Of a stretch of DNA of 32,000 bases, positions 4,129 to 29,588 are shown piece after piece. The notes under the pieces are model-generated. The model worked only from the letters and a program-made list of their open reading frames with translations. It did no database searches and was not told where the DNA came from. Positions within the stretch are counted from its first letter, which is position 1. Each line of letters opens with the position of its first letter. Position numbers and translations under genes: made by a program. This DNA comes from Candidatus Velamenicoccus archaeovorus (lineage in GTDB: Bacteria; Omnitrophota; Gorgyraeia; Velamenicoccales; Velamenicoccaceae), in contig NZ_CP019384.1 of NCBI RefSeq assembly GCF_004102945.1, positions 1,350,001 to 1,382,000 of the forward strand. The letters are read 5' to 3'.

Positions 4129-6036
4129 ATGATTTACGACCGCTTCCAACAAGAAGCCATCGATTTTATCAATCAAGGTTGCTCTGTCGTCGTCTCGGCG
4201 CCGACGGGCGCAGGAAAAACAGCTATTGCCGAGCATGTCATCACCGCCTCCATCGCCCAACAGAAAGGCGTCATCTACACGGCGCCCATCAAGGCCCTCT
4301 CCAACCAGAAATTCAGGGACTTTCGCCGGCTCTATGGAAGTGCCATCGGCATCGTGACCGGCGACATCTCCATCAATCCGCACGCGCCCGTCCTCATCAT
4401 GACGACGGAGATATTCCGCAACAGGATCCTCGACGACCCCGGATCGCTCAAACAATACTCCTGGGTCATTTACGACGAGATCCATTATATCGACAACCCC
4501 GAACGCGGCACCGTCTGGGAAGAATCCTTGATCCTCCTGCCGGAACACATGAATTTTCTCGGACTTTCCGCGACGATCCCCAATATCGACGCGTTTGCCT
4601 CCTGGCTCAAAACCATCCATCACAAAGACGTCAGGGTCGTCATCGAAAACAACCGGCCTGTCCCTCTTCATATCTTCTTCCAGTGCCACGACCGCGTCAC
4701 GGACAAAATTGACGCCTCTGCCTATCATCCCGGCAGACCCAACCGGCTCGACACCCTGATCGAACGCCTGGAATCCCAGGGAGGACTGCCGGCCATCTAT
4801 TTTGCCTTCAGCAGGAGAAAAACGGAAGAGTTGGCGTATGAATCGCGCGGCCACCGCTTTCTGGCGCCCGGGGAAGAAATGCGGATCTCAGAACTCTTTG
4901 ACTCCCTCTGCCGGAAATACGGTCTCCAGGATAATGCATCCGCCAAAGATATCTTCCCTCTCGTGCGGCGCGGCATCGCCTTCCATCACGCCGGGATGCT
5001 GCCGACGCTCAAGGAAATCATCGAACAGCTTTTCACCAGCCACCTTTTGAAACTCATCTTCACCACAGAGACGTTCGCCCTCGGCATCAACATGCCGAGC
5101 CGTTCGGTGATCTTCGACGATTTAAGAAAAATCTACGGCCGCTATGCCCGCAACCTCAAAACCAGGGATTTCTACCAGATGGCCGGCCGCGCCGGCCGGC
5201 GCGGCATGGATAAAGAGGGTTTCGTCTACTGCCGCGTCCATCCTGCCAAGATCAGGCCTGAAGAGGTCCGGCGCATCGTCTTCGGACGGCCGGAGGAAGT
5301 CAAAAGCCAGTTCAATACCTCCTACGCGACGCTCCTGAATCTTTTCGGGCAGCTCAAAGACAGGCTCCTGGACATCTACCCGCTCTCGTTCCACTTCTAT
5401 GGCTCGCGCAAGAATGAACAAAAAGAAGCCGCGCGGCTCCTGGCGGCAAAAATGAGCCTGCTCAAGGAGCTCGGCTTCATCAAAGACAGCGCCCTGACGG
5501 ACAAAGGGGATTTCGCCAAGGCGATCTACGGCTACGAGTTGATCATTTCCGAGCTCTACGACAAACGTATCCTGCAGTCTCTGGACGTCGCAAGCCTGGG
5601 GATGCTTGCGGCCGCGGCCGTCTTCGAGCCGAGAAAATACCAGCAACCTCCCGCCCGCCTGCCCCAAGGATGCCGTCAGATCAAACAGGCAAGCGACAAA
5701 CTCTACGAAGCCCTGCGGGCCAAAGAACAAAGATGCAGGATTTATCCCGTCTCAAAAAAACTCTGGTGGCACCTTTCGCCGGCGATGGAAGCATGGATGA
5801 AAGGCGAAGACTTCGGACGGGTGGCGACGCTGACGGATACGGACGAAGGAGAGATTGTCAGGTATTTCCGCATGGCCCTGCAGATCTTGAACGAGATGCG
5901 CGAGATCAAAAACCTGCCGACAGAGATGAAAGAAAAGATCGAAAAGGCCATCCGTCTCATCAACCGCAACGAAGTGGACGCGGAAAAACAAATAAATCTC
6001 CCCGTGCTCGCCCCGCCCGAGACAGGGCAGACCTGA
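4129..6036 (+). CDS. SF2 DEAD/DEAH-box helicase, Ski2/HelY-like with DSHCT-type C-terminus
   Basis: Walker A APTGAGKT, DEIH box, SAT (LSAT), motif VI QMAGRAGRRG. C-terminal DEGEIVRYFRMALQILNEM resembles the DSHCT domain. Confidence 0.9.
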   Translation: MIYDRFQQEAIDFINQGCSVVVSAPTGAGKTAIAEHVITASIAQQKGVIYTAPIKALSNQKFRDFRRLYGSAIGIVTGDISINPHAPVLIMTTEIFRNRILDDPGSLKQYSWVIYDEIHYIDNPERGTVWEESLILLPEHMNFLGLSATIPNIDAFASWLKTIHHKDVRVVIENNRPVPLHIFFQCHDRVTDKIDASAYHPGRPNRLDTLIERLESQGGLPAIYFAFSRRKTEELAYESRGHRFLAPGEEMRISELFDSLCRKYGLQDNASAKDIFPLVRRGIAFHHAGMLPTLKEIIEQLFTSHLLKLIFTTETFALGINMPSRSVIFDDLRKIYGRYARNLKTRDFYQMAGRAGRRGMDKEGFVYCRVHPAKIRPEEVRRIVFGRPEEVKSQFNTSYATLLNLFGQLKDRLLDIYPLSFHFYGSRKNEQKEAARLLAAKMSLLKELGFIKDSALTDKGDFAKAIYGYELIISELYDKRILQSLDVASLGMLAAAAVFEPRKYQQPPARLPQGCRQIKQASDKLYEALRAKEQRCRIYPVSKKLWWHLSPAMEAWMKGEDFGRVATLTDTDEGEIVRYFRMALQILNEMREIKNLPTEMKEKIEKAIRLINRNEVDAEKQINLPVLAPPETGQT

Positions 6037-6125
6037 GGTTTCTTTCCTGGATGACCCCGCATTCTGCGGCTCGATTACGGGAAGGATAAACGGCACAGTC
6101 AAAGTCTGGATCCGGCCATGAAGCC

Positions 6126-7019
6126 TTAACGAATCTCCGCCTGATCCCCGACAGCAATCTTGTTGCGATCGGCAAACCCGGCGTTGGCTTCAAGAACATA
6201 TCTGGCGGGGCGACTGTTGCTAAAAACGGGCGGCTGGCCTGGGCCGGAAGGCTCGACATTGCGTGCCATATCGACGATCCTGCCTGAAGAATCCATCCAG
6301 ATAACATCCAGCGGGATCCTCGTGTTCTTCATCCAGAACCCCCATATGCCTTCCTGAGAAAAAACAAAAAGCATCCCGCGGTCCTGCGGCAGAAAACGCC
6401 GGTACATCAGGCCTTTTTGCCTTGCGGCATCGGTGTCAGCCACCTCCACGCGCAGACAAACGCTGGGCCCAAAACACACCTGCGGTGAAGCTTGTCTTTG
6501 GGCCGCGAACAACACAAGACTGCAAACCGCCAGAAAACCTATCAACGCCCAGAGAAGGCGGCGCTTCATGGACATCCGGGGGGTAACAGGATGGGGCGAC
6601 GTCCCGTGCCGGCGAGCGATCACCCGCACAAGGGTATTGATCAGATGCTCGGCCTTGTAAAAATTACTCGATTTGTCAAAAAACCCGTTGACGCCGAGCT
6701 TGTAGGCGTCCACGCTCATCTCTTCCTCGCCGAACGCCGAAAGCATGACCACAGGAAGCCGGTCATCCACTTCCCTGATCGCCCTCAGCGTCTCGATACC
6801 CTCCTGACGGGGCATCTGCAGATTGAGGAAAACGATCCCCGGTTTCTTGCTCTTGATCATTTCAATGGCCTCGGCGCCGGACATAAGGGCCTCGATACGG
6901 TACCCCTGAGAGGTAAACCAGTACCTGATCGAATCGAGAAAATCCTTCTCATCGTCGACGATCATGATGTAAAAGTCGCTCTTGGAATCCTGGGGCTGAT
7001 TCATCGGCTTATTGGACAT
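6126..7019 (-). CDS. Receiver (REC) domain - transmembrane helix - DUF192 fusion protein; phospho-acceptor position is Asn
   Basis: 297 aa. Residues ~17-137 are REC (IVDDEKD, VVMLSAF, FFDK). Residues 152-173 are TM (RRLLWALIGFLAVCSLVLFAA). The C-terminus is DUF192 (RQKGLMYRRFLPQDRGMLFVF, FWMKNTRIPLDVIWMD, RYVLEANAG). GGAGGG SD 8 nt upstream. It overlaps the kinase gene by 11 nt. Confidence 0.85.
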   Translation of the reverse strand: MSNKPMNQPQDSKSDFYIMIVDDEKDFLDSIRYWFTSQGYRIEALMSGAEAIEMIKSKKPGIVFLNLQMPRQEGIETLRAIREVDDRLPVVMLSAFGEEEMSVDAYKLGVNGFFDKSSNFYKAEHLINTLVRVIARRHGTSPHPVTPRMSMKRRLLWALIGFLAVCSLVLFAAQRQASPQVCFGPSVCLRVEVADTDAARQKGLMYRRFLPQDRGMLFVFSQEGIWGFWMKNTRIPLDVIWMDSSGRIVDMARNVEPSGPGQPPVFSNSRPARYVLEANAGFADRNKIAVGDQAEIR

Positions 7020-13066: not shown

Positions 13067-13873
13067 TCAGGCCTTAACGGTACAAACGTCTGCCGCCCCG
13101 GCCGCAATCTTATCCTTAATGAGCCCGGCAACCTTCCTTCCTGAATACAGCATCCCGGAGAACGTCGGTCCCATACGGGGAATGGCAAAAACTGTGGCCA
13201 CGCTCATACCGCAGACATAAAGACCCGGATAGACCTCTCCTGTCTTTTCCACGAGCGCATCTTCGGAAGCGACGATATCCATGGCCCCGCACTCGCCGTA
13301 GGACAGAATCCCTCTCTTCTGCAAAGCCTGACAGACACGCGCATCGTGCCCGGTCGCATCTACGACAACCCTCGCCTCCAAGGCGACAGGATCGACACAG
13401 GTGATCGCCCGCGGCAGGGCCGATACGGCCGCCCAGTTGACGACCACGCCCTCCACGCGTCCCTGACGACAAACCACATCGTCGCACTTCGTCATTTGGA
13501 GGAATTTCACCCCTGCGTCGCATGCCGCGGCAATCAGCTTGGAACACGCCTCAGGACCTTTGGCCGCATACAACCCCTCTTCGATTTTTTTGTATCCGAC
13601 ACCTAACTCATCCAGCATCTCTTCTCCGGGACTGCGGAATGTCAGGGTATTCATAAAATACCCGCCGATCCAGAAACCGCCGCCGAGATAATTGTTGCTC
13701 TCGACCACCAGGGTCTTCAAGCCGCTCCGCGCCAGGTCCCGCGCCGCCACAAGACCGCTGGGGCCGGCTCCGACGATCACAACATCGCTTTCGATATGTC
13801 CGTCGAATTCCTGCAGGAATTCCGACGATATGGCACGCGTGATACGCGCTTCATTCACAGGATAAAATGTCAT
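13067..13873 (-). CDS. thi4: Thiazole synthase Thi4/THI1 family, Cys-type active site (ITCVDP)
   Basis: 268 aa. VVIVGAGPSG, NYLGGG, VNWAAV, DATGHDA, GMSV...RMGPTFSGMLYSG. Cys159 codon TGT at 13399..13397. AAGGAG SD upstream. Confidence 0.9.
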   Translation of the reverse strand: MTFYPVNEARITRAISSEFLQEFDGHIESDVVIVGAGPSGLVAARDLARSGLKTLVVESNNYLGGGFWIGGYFMNTLTFRSPGEEMLDELGVGYKKIEEGLYAAKGPEACSKLIAAACDAGVKFLQMTKCDDVVCRQGRVEGVVVNWAAVSALPRAITCVDPVALEARVVVDATGHDARVCQALQKRGILSYGECGAMDIVASEDALVEKTGEVYPGLYVCGMSVATVFAIPRMGPTFSGMLYSGRKVAGLIKDKIAAGAADVCTVKA

Positions 13874-13913
13874 ACGAGTCTCCTTAATTTTGCCTATAAC
13901 CAGGCCCTTTCCT

Positions 13914-14017
13914 TAGGCCCTCCCCTTAGGGGTATGGGGAAGGCCTACCCCTTGTGGGTTACAAAATTAGGCCCTTCGCTTATTTGGTATTGCGAAGGCC
14001 TACCCCCTTGTAGGGTT
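13914..14017 (-). repeat. Two tandem ~50-nt hairpin units (TAGGCC...GGCCTA stem plus small ACCC/GGGT hairpin) in the thi4 leader
   Basis: Unit at 13914..13960 has stem 13914..13925 / 13936..13947. Unit at 13968..14017 has stem 13968..13979 / 13992..14002. The outer 6 bp are identical. The inner 5 bp differ by two compensatory pair changes. A degenerate third unit lies at 14041..14080. Confidence 0.6.
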
Positions 14018-14088
14018 AATCCCGAGTCTGCGAAGGAAATTTTTGCCGGATGGCCGTCCGACGGCCTACCCTGGCAAAAATTTTCAAG

Positions 14089-14140
14089 CGCCCGCCACCA
14101 CTGCGTCGGCGGGCGTCCGCCGAAGAACTAGTGGCGGACG
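14089..14140 (-). repeat. Two abutting GC-rich 8-bp-stem hairpins; member of a dispersed palindromic repeat (second copy 24008..24048)
   Basis: CGCCCGCC-N11-GGCGGGCG (14089..14115) and CGTCCGCC-N11-GGCGGACG (14114..14140). The same stem, a similar loop and the flank CCCGCCAC(C/T)ACTGCGTC recur at 24008..24048. Confidence 0.55.
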
Positions 14141-14200
14141 TTGAGACGAGGGATAAGCGCCTATTCCTTAAGTTGTCCTTCTCATCATCGAACACTCTTC

Positions 14201-14235: not shown

Positions 14236-14261
14236 TCCTCAAAAGACATGGTCCATGTCTA

Positions 14262-14452
14262 CCTCCCTTCGCTGGCATTACCCAGTCCTGCTTCGCTAAA
14301 ACACTTTCGTTTTAGCTTCGCAGGATTCCTGCGTGGCCCCTTTAGAAGCGGGGCGCAACAGGAATCAGGTTCATGAGGTCATCCGCTGCGCCGTCGAAGC
14401 ACGCTTCGACAGCCTGCGGAACTCTCAGGCCGATACACGACCTCCCTCGTCC
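14262..14452 (-). promoter_or_regulatory. TPP (THI-box) riboswitch aptamer with two large insertions
   Basis: Minus-strand reading contains CUGAGAG (14428..14422), ACCUGAU (14370..14364) and CUGGGUAAUGCCAGCGAAGGGA (14285..14264). P2 is GAGGUC/GACCUC (14444..14439 and 14380..14375). It lies upstream of thi4 and is followed by a terminator. Confidence 0.75.
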
Positions 14453-14465
14453 GAATTGTGTCTTT

Positions 14466-15396: not shown

Positions 15397-15537
15397 GTGG
15401 AATCCTCCGGGCCTGCCTTAGCCAAGGCGAGCCGGACTCTCCCTTCTTGTTTCAAACAGTCTCCTGAATGATCCTCACAGCGCCTTCCCGGGGGTTCCCT
15501 CCCGAGACAGTGCTGCATTTCCTGCCGAGGGATTGAA
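15397..15537 (-). promoter_or_regulatory. Unassigned conserved bipartite 5'-leader element, copy 1 (141 nt)
   Basis: Blocks 15537..15494 and 15417..15397 match 28661..28619 (37/44) and 28597..28577 (21/21). Extended -10 TGTTACAAT (15549..15541) ends 3 nt upstream. The element ends 14 nt before ATG 15382. Confidence 0.5.
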
Positions 15538-15690
15538 CCCATTGTAACAAATACCAGGCGATGGACAATAGATAAATCGTCGCATGCCTCACACGTCTTC
15601 CTTCGGACATGTGTTGTTTCCAGCACTGTGAGATGATATGATAGGTTTATTGTTCATGCGACCTGCAACAAGGCATATGGAGAGCCAGCT

Positions 15691-16539
15691 ATGGCCATAA
15701 AGATCAATCTTGCCAAATCAGCCGGCTTCTGTTTCGGCGTACGCCGGGCCATCACCATCGCCCTCAAGACCACGGCAAAACACAAGGACGTGCGGATGCT
15801 CGGCGATATCGTCCATAACGAAGACGTCATCGCCATGATGGAGAGAACCGGAGTAAAAAAGATCAGGACGCTGCGCAAAAACCGCGGACAGACGCTCGTG
15901 ATCCGCGCCCACGGGCTGTCGGCATCCGTCTTTAAGCGCGCTCAAAAACTCGGCTACATCGTCGTGGATGCGACATGCCCCATGGTCAAGGAGATTCACA
16001 GGATTGCGCGCAGGATGGAGCAGGAAAAGCGCAGGATCATCATCATTGGAGATAAAAAACATGACGAAGTCCGCGGCATCAAGGGCCAGCTCAAGACAAA
16101 GGCCTTTGTCGTCTCTTCTGTCGGGGCCGCGGCCCGCCTGCCTTTTCCAAAGATCAAAAAAGCCGCGGTGGTCATTCAATCCACGCAAGACGAAGAAAAC
16201 GCGCTCGGCATATTGCAGCTGATCGCCTCGAAAGTGCGGGATTTGAAATTCTTCAACACCATCTGCGCGCCGACCAGGGTCAAACAAGCAGAAATCAAGG
16301 CCATCCCCTTGAAGAACGATGTCGCGATCATCATTGGTTCCGGCGCGAGCGCCAACACGCGGCGTCTTTTTGAGATCGCCAGGAAACTCAACCCGCGCAC
16401 CTATTGGGTCAGGTCCGCCGGAGACATCCGTCCCCGCTGGCTGAAAGGTATTTCATCCATCGGGATCACGACAGGGGCATCGACACCGGACTCAACGACT
16501 CAACAAGTGATCACGCGCCTCCGCGCCCTCTCTGCCTGA
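15691..16539 (+). CDS. ispH: 4-hydroxy-3-methylbut-2-enyl diphosphate reductase
   Basis: 282 aa. AGFCFGVRRAI, DIVHNEDV, DATCPMV, NTICAPT, ASANTRRL (three cluster Cys). GGAGA SD. Possible promoter TTGTTT-N17-TATGAT at 15614..15642. Confidence 0.95.
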   Translation: MAIKINLAKSAGFCFGVRRAITIALKTTAKHKDVRMLGDIVHNEDVIAMMERTGVKKIRTLRKNRGQTLVIRAHGLSASVFKRAQKLGYIVVDATCPMVKEIHRIARRMEQEKRRIIIIGDKKHDEVRGIKGQLKTKAFVVSSVGAAARLPFPKIKKAAVVIQSTQDEENALGILQLIASKVRDLKFFNTICAPTRVKQAEIKAIPLKNDVAIIIGSGASANTRRLFEIARKLNPRTYWVRSAGDIRPRWLKGISSIGITTGASTPDSTTQQVITRLRALSA

Positions 16540-16562
16540 ACTAGGCCCTTGCGGTCTTCTTC

Positions 16563-17837
16563 TCAAAAATTCTGCTTGTACTTCAAAAAGACGGCGTCGT
16601 TAGTTTCTGGCAGCTGCGTCGTATTCGTGACACTCTCCTGGGAACGCATCTCCTTTTCACCCTCAACGGACAGATGATCGGCCACCTTATAGACCAATGC
16701 CGCCTTTTGGGTCATGGAAACATTGCCGCTGCTGCCGTCTTCCTGTGAAACGGTATAATTCAACCTGGCTCGCGTCGTTATTTGCGTCCCCAGGCCGACC
16801 CCTTTCTTGTTCTGGTCGATCTCCAGATGGATATCGCTTACCCCCAAGGCATGGGCCAAATCAGTCACCTTCCCGCCGAAAAACAAGAAATCCAGCGTAT
16901 CTTTGATCAAATCTGCAGACACCCCTCCCTCGGACAAAGACTTCTCGGCGCTTTGCCAGCTTTTGCCTGTCAAAAGCATCACCAGAAGCCGCTCCTGGGG
17001 CATGGAAGGATCTGAATCAAACCTGAGCTTCGGTTCTTTGAGGGTCCCCTGAAGACGAATCGAGATGGAAACATTTTCCACCTGCGAAAAACCTCTAAGA
17101 TCCAACCGCACATCCCGCGGGCCGTCGGCCAGGATGATGCGGCCGGGTTTCAGGACAATAGCGGCATGAGGCAGCTCGAGTTGCCCGCCATAAATACCGA
17201 CAGAAGCCCAAGATCCGTTCGATTTCGCATATTCCCACAGAAATCCCAAAGGACAATTCTGAAGGACAAAACGGCTCCCCTGGATTTCCGCCACATGGGC
17301 TTTTCCTTCGACGGCGAACCGTTGCGCTGAAACCTTCAGGCGGCATTCCAGGCGGTCCACAAGACCCCGCAGATCCGCCAGCTCCTTGACGGCGGGCGCA
17401 AAACGGCGCACATCTCCCAGATGGATGTCCTTACCAAAAACATCCCCCTCAAAAACGCCATCCTGCAACGCGCCATCGAGGACGACATTCCCGGAATCAG
17501 GAAGGATCAGGCGGCCGTTATGGATCTCGACATTGAGCCCTTTCGGAAACGGAACGCTGAAAAACACATCGATCTTGGAAATCCTCACGATGAGATCCTG
17601 CGGCAGGCGCCCTTTGAAACGGCTGATTTCCAGATCTTTGATCACCAGGTGTCTGCCGAGCGAACCGTCGATTCCGGCGATCTTATAGTCGGCGGCGCCC
17701 ATGATGTCCCGGACGACTCTCCGGACAACAAAAGAAGCGCCCCAGCGCGTCAACAAGAGCCACCAAAGGCATACAACAGAAAAAACGACAAGCACGGATG
17801 TAAAAATCCCCAATATCGTAAATATTTTCTTTCTCAT
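16563..17837 (-). CDS. Short TamB/DUF490-like translocation-and-assembly-module protein
   Basis: ORF 16563..17906. Start moved to ATG 17837 (MRKKIFTILGIFTSVLVVFSVV anchor, GGAG 5 nt upstream). The C-terminal ~150 aa resemble the TamB DUF490 end (LLTGKSW...GVSDIHLEID...LNYTVSQ...VYKVADHLSVEGE). Confidence 0.75.
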   Translation of the reverse strand: MRKKIFTILGIFTSVLVVFSVVCLWWLLLTRWGASFVVRRVVRDIMGAADYKIAGIDGSLGRHLVIKDLEISRFKGRLPQDLIVRISKIDVFFSVPFPKGLNVEIHNGRLILPDSGNVVLDGALQDGVFEGDVFGKDIHLGDVRRFAPAVKELADLRGLVDRLECRLKVSAQRFAVEGKAHVAEIQGSRFVLQNCPLGFLWEYAKSNGSWASVGIYGGQLELPHAAIVLKPGRIILADGPRDVRLDLRGFSQVENVSISIRLQGTLKEPKLRFDSDPSMPQERLLVMLLTGKSWQSAEKSLSEGGVSADLIKDTLDFLFFGGKVTDLAHALGVSDIHLEIDQNKKGVGLGTQITTRARLNYTVSQEDGSSGNVSMTQKAALVYKVADHLSVEGEKEMRSQESVTNTTQLPETNDAVFLKYKQNF

Positions 17838-24735: not shown

Positions 24736-26136
24736 TTAAAACCGGCGATCGGGGACGCCGTTATCCAAAAAGACGACCCGCCAGGCCGTATTGTCGAGCG
24801 GCAGATCCTTGGAACTTGTTTTGGCGCAAGCCAAAATACGGTCGGGGCCGCCCAAAAGGGTCAAGGGGATCTTGACGATCAGCGACTTGCCTTCGTAGGC
24901 CAGCGTCACATCTTTAGTGCGCAGCCTCCTCAGCTTGTCCCAGACCTGGACCCCCCGCATACCCACGCTGATCCGGATCTTCGGCATCTCGGCAAAATCC
25001 TCATTTTTGCGGTAACCGAAAAGATACAGAAAGATGCCGCGGTTCTTGTTGAATCTGTGCCGGAGCGTCAGGCGGACCATGAGATCCCGCCCCTTGACGC
25101 CGTAACTCAGGCTTGAGATCTCTCTCTCTTCTTCAACTGCCTCGTCCATTTCCGGATAGATACGCACATCCTGCCATTGGATCGACGAGGCATCTATGCA
25201 GGAAACGTGGATATCCGGAAGATCATCAAAAAGTTCATTTTTCCTGGCAAATGTATAGAGATAAGACGGGGCGTAGGCCAACTGGCTCCTGTAACAAGAA
25301 ATAGCCTGCCTCTTGTTCCAAACCTCCTTATCGGTCAATGCCAATTTCTGCCACTTGATGCCGACGTCTGCGAGGTTTGCCGGCGGCGAGAGTTCCAGCG
25401 ACGGACGGAATCCTCTCGGCATCGGCCAGCGCACGACGTGCACCAGATAAGTATCCACCTGCGGCGGATCGATCGTACCCTCCAGGTCCCAAAGAACTAC
25501 GCGCAAAAATAGGTTCAGGGCCCGATGGTCCCTGTTCGTATCAGCAGGGTGAGAGACAAATATCTTTGTCGGCCGGAAATCCATAATGACTTTCTTAAGG
25601 TCTTTGATCACGCTGGGACCCGCATAAGGCGCGCCGAAAGAAAAACTGTCTTTATACGGCACCGCCGTCACCCGTGTCAGCATGCTGCGCATCGGCTTGG
25701 CGGGATTCCAATACCGCATAAAGATCTCCATCGTCCCGAAATCGGGATATCCCAAAAACGTCAGGTTCTCTTCGCCGAGGCCGAGATATTTCATGGCCCG
25801 GACGGCCTCCTTGCGCCGCACCTCGCCCATGTACACAAAGGCCTTCTTGCGAAACACCAGGCGCTTCTCATAAACAACAAAGGACAACTCATTGTTATCG
25901 CCGTTGGTGAAATAAACGATCTTGAGGGGGACATGGTTCTGGAGGCAGCGTTGAATAACGCCGCTTGTTGCGATGGCCTCATCGTCCGGATGGGGCGCCA
26001 GGATCAAAACCCTGTCTACGGGCAAAAATGGGGGGAGGGCTTCCTCGGATGAGGCGCCGGCGGCCATGGGCGCCGCCGGAAGACACGTCCACAGGTAAAC
26101 GAAAAAAACCAGGAATGCCTTGCGAAAAAGAATCAT
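24736..26136 (-). CDS. Secreted PIG-L/LmbE-family deacetylase with an extra ~170-aa C-terminal domain
   Basis: 466 aa. Signal peptide MILFRKAFLVFFVYLWTCLPAAPMAAG, then LILAPHPDDEAIATSG and HPADTNRDH motifs. The C-terminal half is unrecognised. ATGA overlap with the GT39 gene. Confidence 0.85.
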   Translation of the reverse strand: MILFRKAFLVFFVYLWTCLPAAPMAAGASSEEALPPFLPVDRVLILAPHPDDEAIATSGVIQRCLQNHVPLKIVYFTNGDNNELSFVVYEKRLVFRKKAFVYMGEVRRKEAVRAMKYLGLGEENLTFLGYPDFGTMEIFMRYWNPAKPMRSMLTRVTAVPYKDSFSFGAPYAGPSVIKDLKKVIMDFRPTKIFVSHPADTNRDHRALNLFLRVVLWDLEGTIDPPQVDTYLVHVVRWPMPRGFRPSLELSPPANLADVGIKWQKLALTDKEVWNKRQAISCYRSQLAYAPSYLYTFARKNELFDDLPDIHVSCIDASSIQWQDVRIYPEMDEAVEEEREISSLSYGVKGRDLMVRLTLRHRFNKNRGIFLYLFGYRKNEDFAEMPKIRISVGMRGVQVWDKLRRLRTKDVTLAYEGKSLIVKIPLTLLGGPDRILACAKTSSKDLPLDNTAWRVVFLDNGVPDRRF

Positions 26137-27812
26137 ATCTTCCCTGCCCCTTGTCCCTTCGGCTGAATCCGGACGATATGTTCGTCGCCGGCCACGTAGA
26201 GAACGTCATGACGGTATTCATCGCCCATGAGGCGGCCAAGGCCGTTCACATAGTCCTTGCGCAAAACCGCGTAAGTCTCAGGCCTTTTTTTGAGATAATC
26301 CCGCAAGGCCTCGATGGTGTTGAGATATTCCACCGGATGGGGGCTGAAATATCCATCGCCGTTGATATCGATGACGGCGATCTGCCTGTCCGTATAGAAC
26401 CGTATGCCGCGCGCAAAGAACTTCGAGCAAAGGACAGGCGCGCCCGGATCGGCCTTCTCTCTCAGATAGCGGCCTGCCTCCCTCGAAGAGACATAAGACT
26501 CAAAATGCGGACTCATGGAAAGGGCAAAAACCAATAAAAGAGGCAGGAAGGCCGCGGTCATCCAGAAACTCCACGAAAAACGCCGACGGGCGCTTGAGAT
26601 TATGTAGACAACCAGGTAAGCCGCCAGGATGCCGGCGAAAATAAGGACGGGCGTACGGTCGGTGACATATTGCGGAAACCTGGACGATGCCACAACCATG
26701 CCCACGGGAAATGCAAGACAGAAAATGCCAGTCGCAAGATACAGGGCTTTCGGGCCGCGCGCCGGCACCTCCTTGAGGAGACGCACGCAGTGCGTCTCCT
26801 CAAGGAAACATCCCGTCATCAAAGCCAGGGCCGGAAAATAAGGAAAGACATAGCTCGTCAGTTTGGAATGCGCAACCTGGAAGATAACGAAGACCACAGC
26901 GACCCAGCTCAAAAGGAACCAGAAGAACGGCGGCGCCTGGCGCAGCTTTTTGACAAATCCGGCAAACGCTGCGACAAAAAAAAGGCTCCAGGGAAACATG
27001 CTGCCGACAGTCGAAAGAGGATAATAATACCATCTGTCGGCCGCCGGATGTTCGGCTTCGACCAGGCGCCGCCAGTGATCGTTGTAAAAAAATTCATGGA
27101 CAAAGACATTGCCATAGGTCTTGAGCATAAAGACATACCATGGCAGCGCCAACAGGCAAAAGAGCGCCAACCCCAGCGGGAATCCACCGCCGGCAACCAG
27201 GCGGAATTCCCTGCGCAAAATCAGGAACAGCAAGACGGCCGACAAAGGAATGATAAGACCCAGCGGGCCCTTGGTAAGGACCGCCAAAGCGGAAAACGCA
27301 AAAAACAGGACCCACCCTATCTGCCGCCTCTTTTCGACCGCATATCCCCACCAAAACGCCAAAAGAGACAAGAGAATAAAGACCGTAAAAATCAAATCCG
27401 TAAAAACCGTGCGGGAAAGCCCGACGTAGAGGCCGCAGGACATAAGGACGACGGCCGACACGAAGGCCTTGCGCCCATCACGGAAACCTAACCATCCAAG
27501 ATAATAAAGTGCGACGACGCCGGCGATGCCGAAAAACGCGGGGAAAAACCTCGCAGCAAAAGGGGTCGCTCCGGCAACGTCAAAGCTCAGACGCAGGAGC
27601 CAGAAGGTCATGATGGGTTTTTCAAACTGGGGCGAGCCGAAAAGATACGGCGTCATCCAGCTGTGCTGCTGCTGCATTTCCCTGGCGGTCTGGGCATAAA
27701 AAACTTCGTCGGGATTGGTAAGGCTCAATAGCCCGTTGCCTGCCATCAAAAAAACAAACCCTAAAACCAAAAGAATCGAGACAAATTTAATGTTTACCGG
27801 AATTTTGGGCAT
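26133..27812 (-). CDS. Glycosyltransferase family 39/83 (ArnT/PMT-like) polytopic membrane protein
   Basis: 559 aa with >=10 hydrophobic helices. First-loop motif NPDEVFYAQTAREM is typical of ArnT/PMT-type lipid-linked-sugar transferases. Confidence 0.9.
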   Translation of the reverse strand: MPKIPVNIKFVSILLVLGFVFLMAGNGLLSLTNPDEVFYAQTAREMQQQHSWMTPYLFGSPQFEKPIMTFWLLRLSFDVAGATPFAARFFPAFFGIAGVVALYYLGWLGFRDGRKAFVSAVVLMSCGLYVGLSRTVFTDLIFTVFILLSLLAFWWGYAVEKRRQIGWVLFFAFSALAVLTKGPLGLIIPLSAVLLFLILRREFRLVAGGGFPLGLALFCLLALPWYVFMLKTYGNVFVHEFFYNDHWRRLVEAEHPAADRWYYYPLSTVGSMFPWSLFFVAAFAGFVKKLRQAPPFFWFLLSWVAVVFVIFQVAHSKLTSYVFPYFPALALMTGCFLEETHCVRLLKEVPARGPKALYLATGIFCLAFPVGMVVASSRFPQYVTDRTPVLIFAGILAAYLVVYIISSARRRFSWSFWMTAAFLPLLLVFALSMSPHFESYVSSREAGRYLREKADPGAPVLCSKFFARGIRFYTDRQIAVIDINGDGYFSPHPVEYLNTIEALRDYLKKRPETYAVLRKDYVNGLGRLMGDEYRHDVLYVAGDEHIVRIQPKGQGAGKI

Positions 27813-28542
27813 CGTTTAACCTCATCTTCACCAGCTCATCGACCGTGACGAACCTCCACCCCTTCTCCTTGAGACGTTCGATCAGCCTCATGACCGCCAG
27901 GACCGTCTCGTCCCTGTCTCCCCCCTCGATGCTAAAAACCCCGCCGCTGTCGTGAAACAGGATGATATCTCCCGGCCGCACGTGATGCATCAAATACTTG
28001 ATCATATATTTATCGTCAAACGTCACCCAATCCTTGGAATTCAAGGACCAAAGGATGATCTCATAGCCCATGGATCTCACGAGGCGCTTTTCAGACGGCG
28101 TCATCCATGCTTTCGGCGGCCGGAAATACTGCGTCCGCACGCCCGTCACCTCCTTAATGATATCTTCTGTGCGGCGGATCTCGCTCTCCAGCTCTTGAGG
28201 GTGATAATACAGAAGGACATGGTGATCGTAGGTATGGTTGCCGATCGTGTGCCCCTCACGGGCCACGCGCCTGGCGACATCGGGATACTTTTTGACGTGC
28301 TCACCCAGCATGAAAAACGTCGCCTTGACGCCGGCATCCTTGAGCACGTCAAGGATCCGGGGGGTCCACAGGGGAGACGGACCATCGTCAAACGTCAGGG
28401 CGACGACCTTTTCTTTGACCCGCTCATGATAGATCGTCCCCTTGCGCACAAGGACGGCCTGGTCAAAGAAAACAACAAAAACCGCCGTCGCCAAAGCGGC
28501 CAGAAATATAAGAACAATCCCTATCCTGATGATGCGTCTCAT
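27787..28542 (-). CDS. Membrane-anchored polysaccharide deacetylase (NodB homology domain)
   Basis: 251 aa. N-terminal TM segment. NodB motifs ALTFDDGPS, GNHTYDH, YFRPP and ILFHD. GGAGAAG SD. Confidence 0.9.
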   Translation of the reverse strand: MRRIIRIGIVLIFLAALATAVFVVFFDQAVLVRKGTIYHERVKEKVVALTFDDGPSPLWTPRILDVLKDAGVKATFFMLGEHVKKYPDVARRVAREGHTIGNHTYDHHVLLYYHPQELESEIRRTEDIIKEVTGVRTQYFRPPKAWMTPSEKRLVRSMGYEIILWSLNSKDWVTFDDKYMIKYLMHHVRPGDIILFHDSGGVFSIEGGDRDETVLAVMRLIERLKEKGWRFVTVDELVKMRLNDAQNSGKH

Positions 28543-28576
28543 AGTCGCTTCTCCGCGTCCATCCGGTTAAAATTCA

Positions 28577-28661
28577 GTGGAATCCTCCGGGCCTGCCATG
28601 AACAGGACGAATCCAGAGGTTCTCTCCCAAGACAGCACGCATTCCCTGCCGAGGGATTGAA
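28577..28661 (-). promoter_or_regulatory. Unassigned conserved bipartite 5'-leader element, copy 2 (85 nt)
   Basis: Same two blocks as 15397..15537, with only 21 nt between them. Extended -10 TGGTAAAGT (28673..28665) ends 3 nt upstream. The element ends 34 nt before ATG 28542. Confidence 0.5.
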
Positions 28662-28714
28662 GATACTTTACCAAAAGCCGTCCTGCCGTACAACCAAATT
28701 TTTCCGGCCCCTTC

Positions 28715-28742
28715 TTTACATTCGGCCCCGATTTGCTAAAAT
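28715..28742 (+). promoter_or_regulatory. Sigma70-type promoter TTTACA-N16-TAAAAT for the second thi4
   Basis: -35 at 28715..28720 and -10 at 28737..28742. The ~68-nt leader has only a simple GCGCC/GGCGC hairpin and no THI-box. Confidence 0.5.
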
Positions 28743-28817: not shown

Positions 28818-29588
28818 ATGATCGACGAAATCAAGATTTCCAGGGCCATCATCGACACTTACAGCAAAAAACTGATCGACCACCTTTCCGTAGATGTGGC
28901 GATTGCCGGCGCCGGCCCCTCCGGCATGGTCTGCGCTTACTATCTCGCCAAAAAAGGCAAAAAAGTCGCCATCTTCGAACGTAAGCTATCCGTCGGTGGA
29001 GGCATGTGGGGCGGCGGCATCATGTTCAACGAGATCGTCGTCCAGGCACAGGCCAAAAAGATCCTCGATGAATTCGGCATCCGCAGCCGCCTCTGGGAGA
29101 ACGGCTACTATCTGGCGGATTCCATCGAAGCCACGGCGACGCTGTGCGCGCAGGCCCTCAAAGCCGGCGCGGCCATCTTCAATTGCATGAGCGCCGAAGA
29201 TGTCATGATCAGGAAAAACCGCGTCTGCGGACTTGTCCTCAACTGGACGGCCGTCGAAATGGCGCGGCTCCACGTAGACCCCATCACGATGCGCGCCTCC
29301 TATGTCGTCGACGGCACAGGCCACGACGCGCAAATCGTCCATATCGTCGAAAATAAATCCGGGATACGCCTCAAGACAAAAACCGGAAGGGCCGCCGGCG
29401 AAGGCTCCATGTGGGCCGAGATCGCCGAGGCGACAACCGTCAAAAATACCGGCGAAGTGGCTCCGGGCCTCTATGTCTGCGGCATGTGCGCCAACGCCGC
29501 TTTCGGCGGACCCCGCATGGGCCCCATCTTCGGAGGCATGCTTCTGTCGGGAAAAAAAGCTGCAGAAGAACTCCTCAAGAAACTCTAG
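28818..29588 (+). CDS. thi4: Thiazole synthase Thi4 family, His-type active site (LHVDP; sulfide-dependent archaeal type)
   Basis: ORF 28749..29588. Start moved to ATG 28818 ([21 protein letters not shown]). [33 protein letters not shown]...[13 protein letters not shown]. His152 codon CAC at 29271..29273. Confidence 0.9.

Follow-up and report, generated by a model that had tools for sequence, protein, structure and literature searches.

Ahead of an operon that begins with a gene for a NodB-type polysaccharide deacetylase lies a short sequence whose two characteristic blocks recur in a second leader of the same genome. Is this sequence a conserved regulatory leader of the two mRNAs, or DNA that arrived there by other means? 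We addressed this question in the window, the 32,000-nt stretch of the Candidatus Velamenicoccus archaeovorus genome introduced above. The host is an uncultured predatory Omnitrophota bacterium with a closed genome (CP019384, 1.97 Mb), for which limonene enrichment metatranscriptomes exist (PMC12583861); homologues of the window proteins bear Candidatus Omnitrophota names. The original prediction had described a repeated, unassigned bipartite element and implied that it acts as a conserved cis-regulatory leader. We found both blocks exact in the two leaders, on the same strand and in the same order, and no Rfam family matches the element. That two leaders of one genome share identical blocks does not by itself point to a regulon. 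The feature is real, undescribed and narrowly distributed, and our results indicate that it is young, species-restricted inserted DNA and not a conserved riboswitch-like regulator.

Copy 2 in the leader of the NodB operon

Copy 2 occupies 80 nt at 28577..28656 (-), downstream of the NodB-PMT-PIG-L promoter and upstream of the SD and ATG of this operon. The element proper (TCCCTCGG...GGATTCCAC, TCCC...CCAC) scored 102 bits with covariance model R1. Its 5' block is the 17-mer TTCAATCCCTCGGCAGG (28661..28645, -), and its 3' block is the 21-mer GGCAGGCCCGGAGGATTCCAC (28597..28577, -). The promoter (28665..28693, -) consists of TTGTAC (28693..28688), a 17-nt spacer and TGgTAAAGT, with TGGTAAAGT (28673..28665) ending 3 nt ahead of TTCAATCC; the cognate TTGTGC-17-TGaTAAAGT is present in element-free relatives. 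On the minus strand, 28693..28540 thus reads TTGTAC, the 17-nt spacer, TGGTAAAGT, ATC, TTCAA, TCCCTCGGCAGGGAATGCGTGCTGTCTTGGGAGAGAACCTCTGGATTCGTCCTGTTCATGGCAGGCCCGGAGGATTCCAC, 34 nt containing GGAGAAG, and ATG. Those 34 nt separate the end of the 3' block from the ATG (28542) and form an older short leader (28543..28576, -) including the SD GGAGAAG (28548..28554), homologous to the leader of a relative with an empty site (L007). The coordinates, promoter geometry, SD and 34-nt ATG distance of the original prediction were all confirmed on the sequence.

Downstream of copy 2 lie, all on the minus strand, the genes for the NodB-type polysaccharide deacetylase (27787..28542), a PMT/GT39 glycosyltransferase (26133..27812) and a PIG-L deacetylase (24736..26136). 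By promoter geometry, the transcription start is predicted within the left flank TTCAA (28657..28661, -), probably at its first A, 7 nt past the -10 box; the -10 box ends 6 nt ahead of AAUCCC. The element would accordingly open about 2 nt into the predicted transcript, and the same geometry holds at the second locus.

A promoter scan recovered a plus-strand promoter-like site at 28715..28742, beyond copy 2, in agreement with the claim that a separate promoter leaves the element outside the thi4 transcript. Because copy 2 lies between a promoter conserved in relatives and the SD, it is almost certainly transcribed as part of the NodB operon's 5' leader, outside the thi4 transcript. The opposite-strand reading, in which the element would be a thi4 or ispH leader, was rejected: the thi4 promoter lies beyond the element, the position of thi4 is unchanged in element-free relatives, and the bottom strand folds about 10 kcal/mol worse. 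Two Thi4-family paralogues are encoded in the window, at 13067..13873 (-) and 28818..29588 (+); the latter is divergent from the NodB operon, and no riboswitch was detected there.

Further observations concern the surroundings of copy 2. The core of the 5' block, CGGCAGGA, is repeated in the promoter spacer (28681..28688, -) and is missing there in the sister lineage. AGGGAUU in NodB codons 10-12 (28508..28514, -) complements AAUCCCU, the 5' end of the element, without mismatch. In each of the three lineages with the 5' hairpin, the full leader pairs these segments in its minimum-free-energy fold, which may be a coincidence; L007 differs in sequence at this position of NodB. A candidate uORF of the copy 2 leader (ATGGACGCGGAGAAGCGACTATGA) was dropped, as it is not kept in the relative L005.

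Copies of the element and their sites in relatives

Copy 1 (15397..15532, -; 136 nt; 89 bits) is inserted at GGGTTCAA|AAAGAGAGG, 2 nt past the predicted start of a gene encoding a TPR protein. The promoter of this gene (TTGTCC, a 16-nt spacer and TACAAT with TG; 15541..15568, -) is kept in element-free relatives. Copies 1 and 2 share exact 17-nt and 21-nt blocks in identical order and strand, which in copy 1 lie at 15521..15536 (5' block) and 15397..15417 (3' block); for recurrence of the 21-mer, 0 matches were expected in shuffles. The two copies differ by 56 nt in length, and the block-to-block distance ranges from 47 to 103 nt.

About 1.2 kb past the right end of the window, in the continuation of the same genome (L029), a third and longer homologue of about 175 nt was found at 1964..~2140. 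This copy 3 was first seen as a weak match of covariance model R1 (L029 1964-2026), and it is also present in the sister lineage (L030 5001..~5150), with a 25-nt indel between the two lineages. Its stretch AATCCCCCGGCCGGAATTCCCCGG.. resembles the long loop of the sister-lineage copy 2, GGCGGAAATGCGGTTGTCTTTGGGAGGGAATCC resembles the 5' block, and TTCCAGGAGACTGGCAGGGG resembles the extra segment of copy 1 plus the 3' block. Local alignments among the three copies scored 31-52; shuffled sequences averaged 16-18 and reached 32 at most. The left flank of copy 3 is TTTAA|TCCC; its neighbours are a DUF483-like ORF on one side and, on the other, a type IV pilin-like operon with its own promoter. No promoter or terminator was called at copy 3. 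Its predicted fold branches several times, and a long-range helix closes it. The three copies thus lie within about 18 kb at three unrelated sites, all on the minus strand of the window.

The ORF beside copy 3 encodes 339 aa (L029 1049..2068) or, in the sister lineage, 324 aa (L030 4086..5060), carries a GYPxCC motif and is absent from L002. As a transposase candidate it was rejected, since its one domain match, to DUF483, fell below threshold. The final ~35 codons overlap copy 3, and the two lineages differ in the frame in which the ORF terminates; its C-terminus is therefore probably not conserved protein.

We fetched the orthologous loci via the downstream NodB and TPR proteins. In L007, whose NodB is 88% identical, the site is empty and reads TATCTTCGA|TGTATTTT; continued to the gene, TATCTTCGA|TGTATTTTGAGCAAATCGG..GGAGGA..ATG equals the window sequence without the element. 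L001 and L004 (77-79% identical NodB) keep the promoter TTGTGC-17-TGATAAAGT, have the ATG almost directly after it, and lack the element. In these two relatives an in-frame ATG lies about 8 nt after the promoter TGATAAAGT (L001 9930..9950, L004 9975..9995), so that the NodB mRNA looks leaderless; this suggests a leaderless NodB mRNA there versus a leader of about 115 nt with an SD in the window lineage. The NodB site of L002 has a differing intergenic sequence, and the element is absent. L005, L006 and L008 (95% identical NodB) hold the 5' part of copy 2 only; a 38-nt deletion between two GGAG repeats removed the 3' hairpin. The TPR site is empty in L023 and L024 (92%), L025 (87%), and L027 and L028 (76% identical TPR); these sites read ..TGTTACAATGGGTTCAA|AAGAGAGG..ATG with the promoter intact.

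Comparison with the empty sites defines the element proper as TCCC...CCAC, that is, 28577..28656 for copy 2 and 15397..15532 for copy 1. Both insertions abut TTCRA on the 3' side, with no target duplication beyond an ambiguous A-run. The left flank is TTCAA at copies 1 and 2, TTCGA at the sister copy 1 and at the empty site of L007, and TTTAA at copy 3. The sister lineage (L030-L043), whose NodB is 5 residues off that of the window, keeps copies 1 and 2. Its copy 1 is 136 nt with 6 substitutions, and its copy 2 is 116 nt, the loop of its 5' hairpin holding an inserted GC-rich stem of 36 nt. One base of the 3' block is variable, A in the window and C or G in the sister lineage; the two 3' blocks of the window are identical, and those of the sister lineage differ. 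Copy 2 had been described as a minimal 85-nt version; it is indeed the shortest intact copy seen, but the element proper measures 80 nt and its sister orthologue 116 nt.

Filled, empty, truncated and expanded states are therefore all present among close relatives. Alignment of the orthologous loci shows that both copies are insertions at otherwise empty sites, and that copy 1 was inserted later than copy 2, at the matching relative position in the TPR leader. The implied conservation of the leader did not hold up: orthologous NodB (77-88%) and TPR (76-92%) leaders exist without the element, one lineage lacks the entire 3' block, and the insertion is kept only in the sister lineage. In related genomes the blocks are largely absent.

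Database searches gave a similarly narrow distribution. Rfam 15 gave 0 window matches at the gathering threshold and only noise at E<=10 around copies 1, 2 and 3. Scanning 185,579 species genomes with the 5'-hairpin pattern returned, among the matches listed, the truncated L008 and 2 chance matches, and an exact scan of JGI metagenomes with the 3' 19-mer returned 12 chance matches among those listed. The latter missed the sister-lineage contigs because their 3' block is one base off the exact 19-mer; this pattern is thus too strict, and the metagenome negative is weak. Looser patterns of the element are TCCCTCGGCAGGN{6,50}CTGYCNNGGGAG and GGCAGGCCCGGNGGATTCC. Viral contig scans gave no match to the element, and six-frame translations of copies 1 and 2 had no match among 5.8 billion proteins, where spurious ORFs over other copies were sought. 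Covariance model R1, run over 352 kb of related loci, recovered the known copies, the truncated copies and the weak match to copy 3, and nothing further. No match outside this clade was among those listed in the exact-pattern genome, metagenome and viral scans; by these searches, the element family does not reach beyond Candidatus Velamenicoccus archaeovorus and the relatives closest to it. Resemblances to integron attC sites, tRNA-like and SRP-like RNAs were discarded by eye, as the core motifs do not fit.

Predicted structure, divergence and origin of the element

Minimum-free-energy folds predicted two hairpins. The 5' hairpin of copy 2 (28625..28656, -) has the form UCCC-UC-GGCAG-(variable loop)-CUGYC-YY-GGGA, and the 3' hairpin (28580..28622, -) has the form GAA-CCYCYGG...CYUG-loop-CAGG-C-CCGGNGG-A-UUC, its 3' arm being the 3' block described above. 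This two-hairpin arrangement is the minimum-free-energy fold of copy 2 and of both sister copies, and the 3' hairpin of copy 1 is paired in a different register. Over 4 distinct sequences, 96% of the cells in the two-hairpin model were paired, compared with 37-63% in slid controls; in the 5' hairpin all cells were paired, with one pair changing from G.U to G-C. Changes across the 4 sequences were G.U to G-C, in loops, or at one hypervariable (N) position, and size changes fell at the hairpin tips with the stem bases fixed. One compensatory pair was seen in 4 sequences, which is not significant (271/500 shuffles reached the same score). The top strand folded about 10 kcal/mol better than the bottom strand, with weak z-scores of -1.1 to -1.7. 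The short internal stem that had been proposed between CAGGGAAU and AUUCguCCUG is not common to copy 1 and clashes with these better-supported hairpins.

No terminator was found between the element and the ATG in copies 1 and 2. The probability of an unpaired SD was 0.23-0.53 with the element and 0.49-0.51 without it in natural empty-site leaders. In these models the SD appears not to be sequestered, and no expression platform was found, which speaks against the implied cis-regulatory role.

The copies differ in their rates of change. Between the window and the sister lineage, copy 1 has 6/136 differences (4.4%), whereas the intergenic DNA upstream of it has 19/158 (12%) and third codon positions of neighbouring genes have 11-13% divergence. 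The difference between copy 1 (6/136) and its surroundings (88/729) gave p=0.0065, and Fisher p ranged from 0.006 to 0.03 by comparison. Copy 2, with about 7 changes in 62 non-loop positions by hand count plus the 36-nt indel, changes at least as fast as its surroundings. In the sister lineage, the loop of copy 2 resembles copy 3. Selection could account for the low divergence of copy 1, as could sequence exchange among copies, and the helix-keeping substitutions likewise hint at constraint or gene conversion.

On balance, we think the element is probably a non-autonomous mobile insertion that is transcribed as an mRNA 5' end and has a passive or modest effect on its host genes. Several copies occupy unrelated sites, and their presence or absence is polymorphic among close relatives; the 38-nt deletion and the 36-nt, 56-nt and 25-nt size differences are typical of selfish or neutral DNA. 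At the NodB locus, an 80-nt segment was inserted 3' of TTCRA, between the operon promoter and its older short leader. The element may spread like a single-strand (IS200/IS605-type) transposon, a mode suggested by the fixed left pentanucleotide, the lack of duplication, the single orientation and a hairpin near each end. The minus strand, which is the top strand of the element, is G-rich (plus-strand GC skew -0.06 to -0.10 throughout); the single orientation is seen at n=3 and is confounded with gene direction. No Y1 (HUH) transposase or RAYT partner was found within the 32-kb window. Landing about 2 nt past the predicted start, the element would be transcribed as the extreme 5' end of the mRNA, with its two hairpins. 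A 5'-terminal stem-loop tends to protect mRNA from 5'-end-dependent decay. The effect on host genes would most likely be passive or modest, and the element may stabilise the mRNA; ligand- or signal-dependent switching would not be expected.

Several findings count against mobility as a full account, among them the lack of a transposase partner in the window, the small number of known copies (three), the unlike terminal hairpins and the weak fold z-scores. In addition, both leader insertions are equally distant from the -10 box, which random transposition would not yield, and copy 1 is more conserved than its surroundings between sister lineages. The start-site precision may reflect selection or integration into open promoter complexes. 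In the latter case, we would be dealing with a miniature single-strand transposon; it would enter the non-template strand exposed in the complex, 3' of TTCRA at about +2, and each hop would graft a structured 5' end onto a host mRNA as a portable leader module. Such integration would explain the equal -10 distance, the single orientation and the signs of constraint in copy 1, and we regard it as improbable. More credible, though still rather unlikely, is an exapted cis-acting leader RNA, in which the two-hairpin module is now under selection whatever its origin. It could serve as a site for an RNA-binding protein or small RNA, or as a determinant of stability or translation, and would place the TPR gene and the envelope-modification operon under joint control. 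The low divergence of copy 1 relative to the upstream DNA and third codon positions, the excess of paired cells over slid controls, size changes that spare the stem bases, the start of both copies about 2 nt past the predicted start, and several GGA motifs in the element are all consistent with such a role. However, the rate of change in copy 2 is close to that of neutral sites, the 3' hairpin is entirely gone from one lineage and relatives manage without the element, the covariation in 4 sequences was equalled by 271/500 shuffles, the SD is not sequestered, and gene conversion among copies could also give low divergence and identical blocks.

Two classical regulatory readings fared worse. A transcription factor could bind DNA operators at +1 and downstream, formed by the repeated CGGCAGG / TGGCAGG: GGCAGG occurs in both blocks in direct orientation and again in the promoter spacer of the window's copy 2, and the 5' block overlaps the predicted start. 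But the spacer GGCAGG is missing in the sister lineage, the block distance varies from 47 to 103 nt, folding is strand-asymmetric, and the entire unit came in as a single insertion, all of which make operators very improbable. Lowest of all we place a ligand-sensing riboswitch or attenuator, in which a long-range helix would compete with the two local hairpins; we give it hardly any probability. A helix of 10 positions can form between the 5' and 3' blocks, the minimum-free-energy fold of copy 3 closes with an analogous long-range helix, and the base opposite the mismatch varies among A, C and G. In copy 2, however, this helix (AAUCC-C-UCGG/CCGG-N-GGAUU) reached -16.3 kcal/mol versus -27.9 kcal/mol for the two hairpins, about 12 kcal/mol worse. 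Moreover, there was no Rfam match at E<=10, the element occurs in one species-level clade with orthologous leaders lacking it, neither a terminator nor an SD-sequestering platform was found, and the downstream genes have no common metabolite logic.

Neighbouring insertions and known systems

Further non-coding stretches of this genome region have also received lineage-specific insertions. One affects a TPP riboswitch at about 14261..14457 (-) of the window, between the TPR gene and the Thi4 paralogue at 13067..13873. Rfam detects it in L023 (59.5 bits) and L027 (56.4 bits) and not in the window or the sister lineage, where it was missed because of a hairpin-forming insertion of about 77 nt (~14286..14363) inside the aptamer, between CCUGAU and CUGGGUAAUGCCAG. 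In this lineage, the insertion may have disabled the riboswitch or remodelled it. The Thi4 paralogue (13067..13873, -) is followed by ZIP, CDF, DsbD_TM and thioredoxin-like genes. Just upstream of its SD, a window-specific insertion of about 281 nt (~13879..14162, -) is flanked by TTAAGGA(A/G) direct repeats and is rich in palindromes and internal repeats (GAAGGCCTACCC; TTAGGCCCT..CTTA); neither the sister lineage nor L023 has it, and it looks like a different small mobile repeat. In L023, the TPP riboswitch is followed by a REP-like palindromic insertion. The same relative carries a gene for an IS200-like or RAYT-like Y1 transposase at 16190..17045, between a response regulator and a DEAD helicase, and this insertion is absent from the window (6036..6126). 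The L023 Y1_Tnp gene was rejected as a partner of the element, being flanked by unrelated ATCAGAGCTTAGCTCTGAT palindromes.

If our reading is correct, the locus holds no new riboswitch class; a small, recently active insertion rewrites mRNA 5' ends instead. The series of filled, empty, truncated and expanded sites would then be a natural test set for the effect of a 5'-terminal structured insert on expression. The precise landing at predicted transcription starts is the part left unexplained.

Compared with riboswitches and other Rfam leaders, the element is alike in its position between promoter and SD, its fixed stems and variable tips, and a possible closing helix. It differs in having no family match, a range of one species-level clade, no platform and clean insertion boundaries. 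Stem-loops of the ompA type at the 5' terminus stabilise bacterial mRNAs, and in our folds both mRNAs likewise have a stable hairpin 2 nt from the predicted 5' end; that model, in contrast, leaves the second hairpin of the element without a function.

Correia elements of Neisseria, ERIC, RUP and BOX are MITEs or co-transcribed intergenic repeats. The element is similar to them in being 80-140 nt, non-coding and structured, in having long and short variants set apart by an internal segment, in lying near genes and within their mRNAs, and in its presence/absence polymorphism among relatives. Unlike a classical MITE, it has no target-site duplication at either site, and its inverted repeat is only an imperfect 10-mer (AATCCCTCGG/CCGGNGGATT) with 1-2 mismatches, flank bases included. 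Its apparent copy number is also very low for a MITE.

IS200/IS605 elements invariably join their left end to the 3' side of a tetra- or pentanucleotide specific to the element, and they prefer the lagging-strand template (PMC5027513); they have subterminal palindromes (PMC3201880) and miniature derivatives (PMC7290912). Like IS200/IS605, PATEs and REP/RAYT, the element lies directly 3' of a pentanucleotide (TTCRA or TTTAA) without duplication. It also shares with these systems the size variants from internal indels, a single orientation of all copies on the G-rich (lagging-strand-template) strand, and a hairpin predicted close to each end. In contrast to IS200/IS605, neither the window nor the relative L023 yielded a Y1 transposase or TnpB whose ends match, the left hairpin lies only about 6 nt from the junction, no more than three copies are known, and 2 of these sit exactly at a predicted transcription start. 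Furthermore, the two ends of IS608 are alike, whereas the terminal hairpins of the element are unlike in sequence and orientation, with swapped arms (GGCAG..CUGYC in the 5' hairpin versus CCUGUY..GGCAGG in the 3' hairpin). Because no matching transposase was found there and the hairpins are unlike, we do not file the element as a member of IS200/IS605, and describe it as one that appears to act like an IS200/IS605 transposon.
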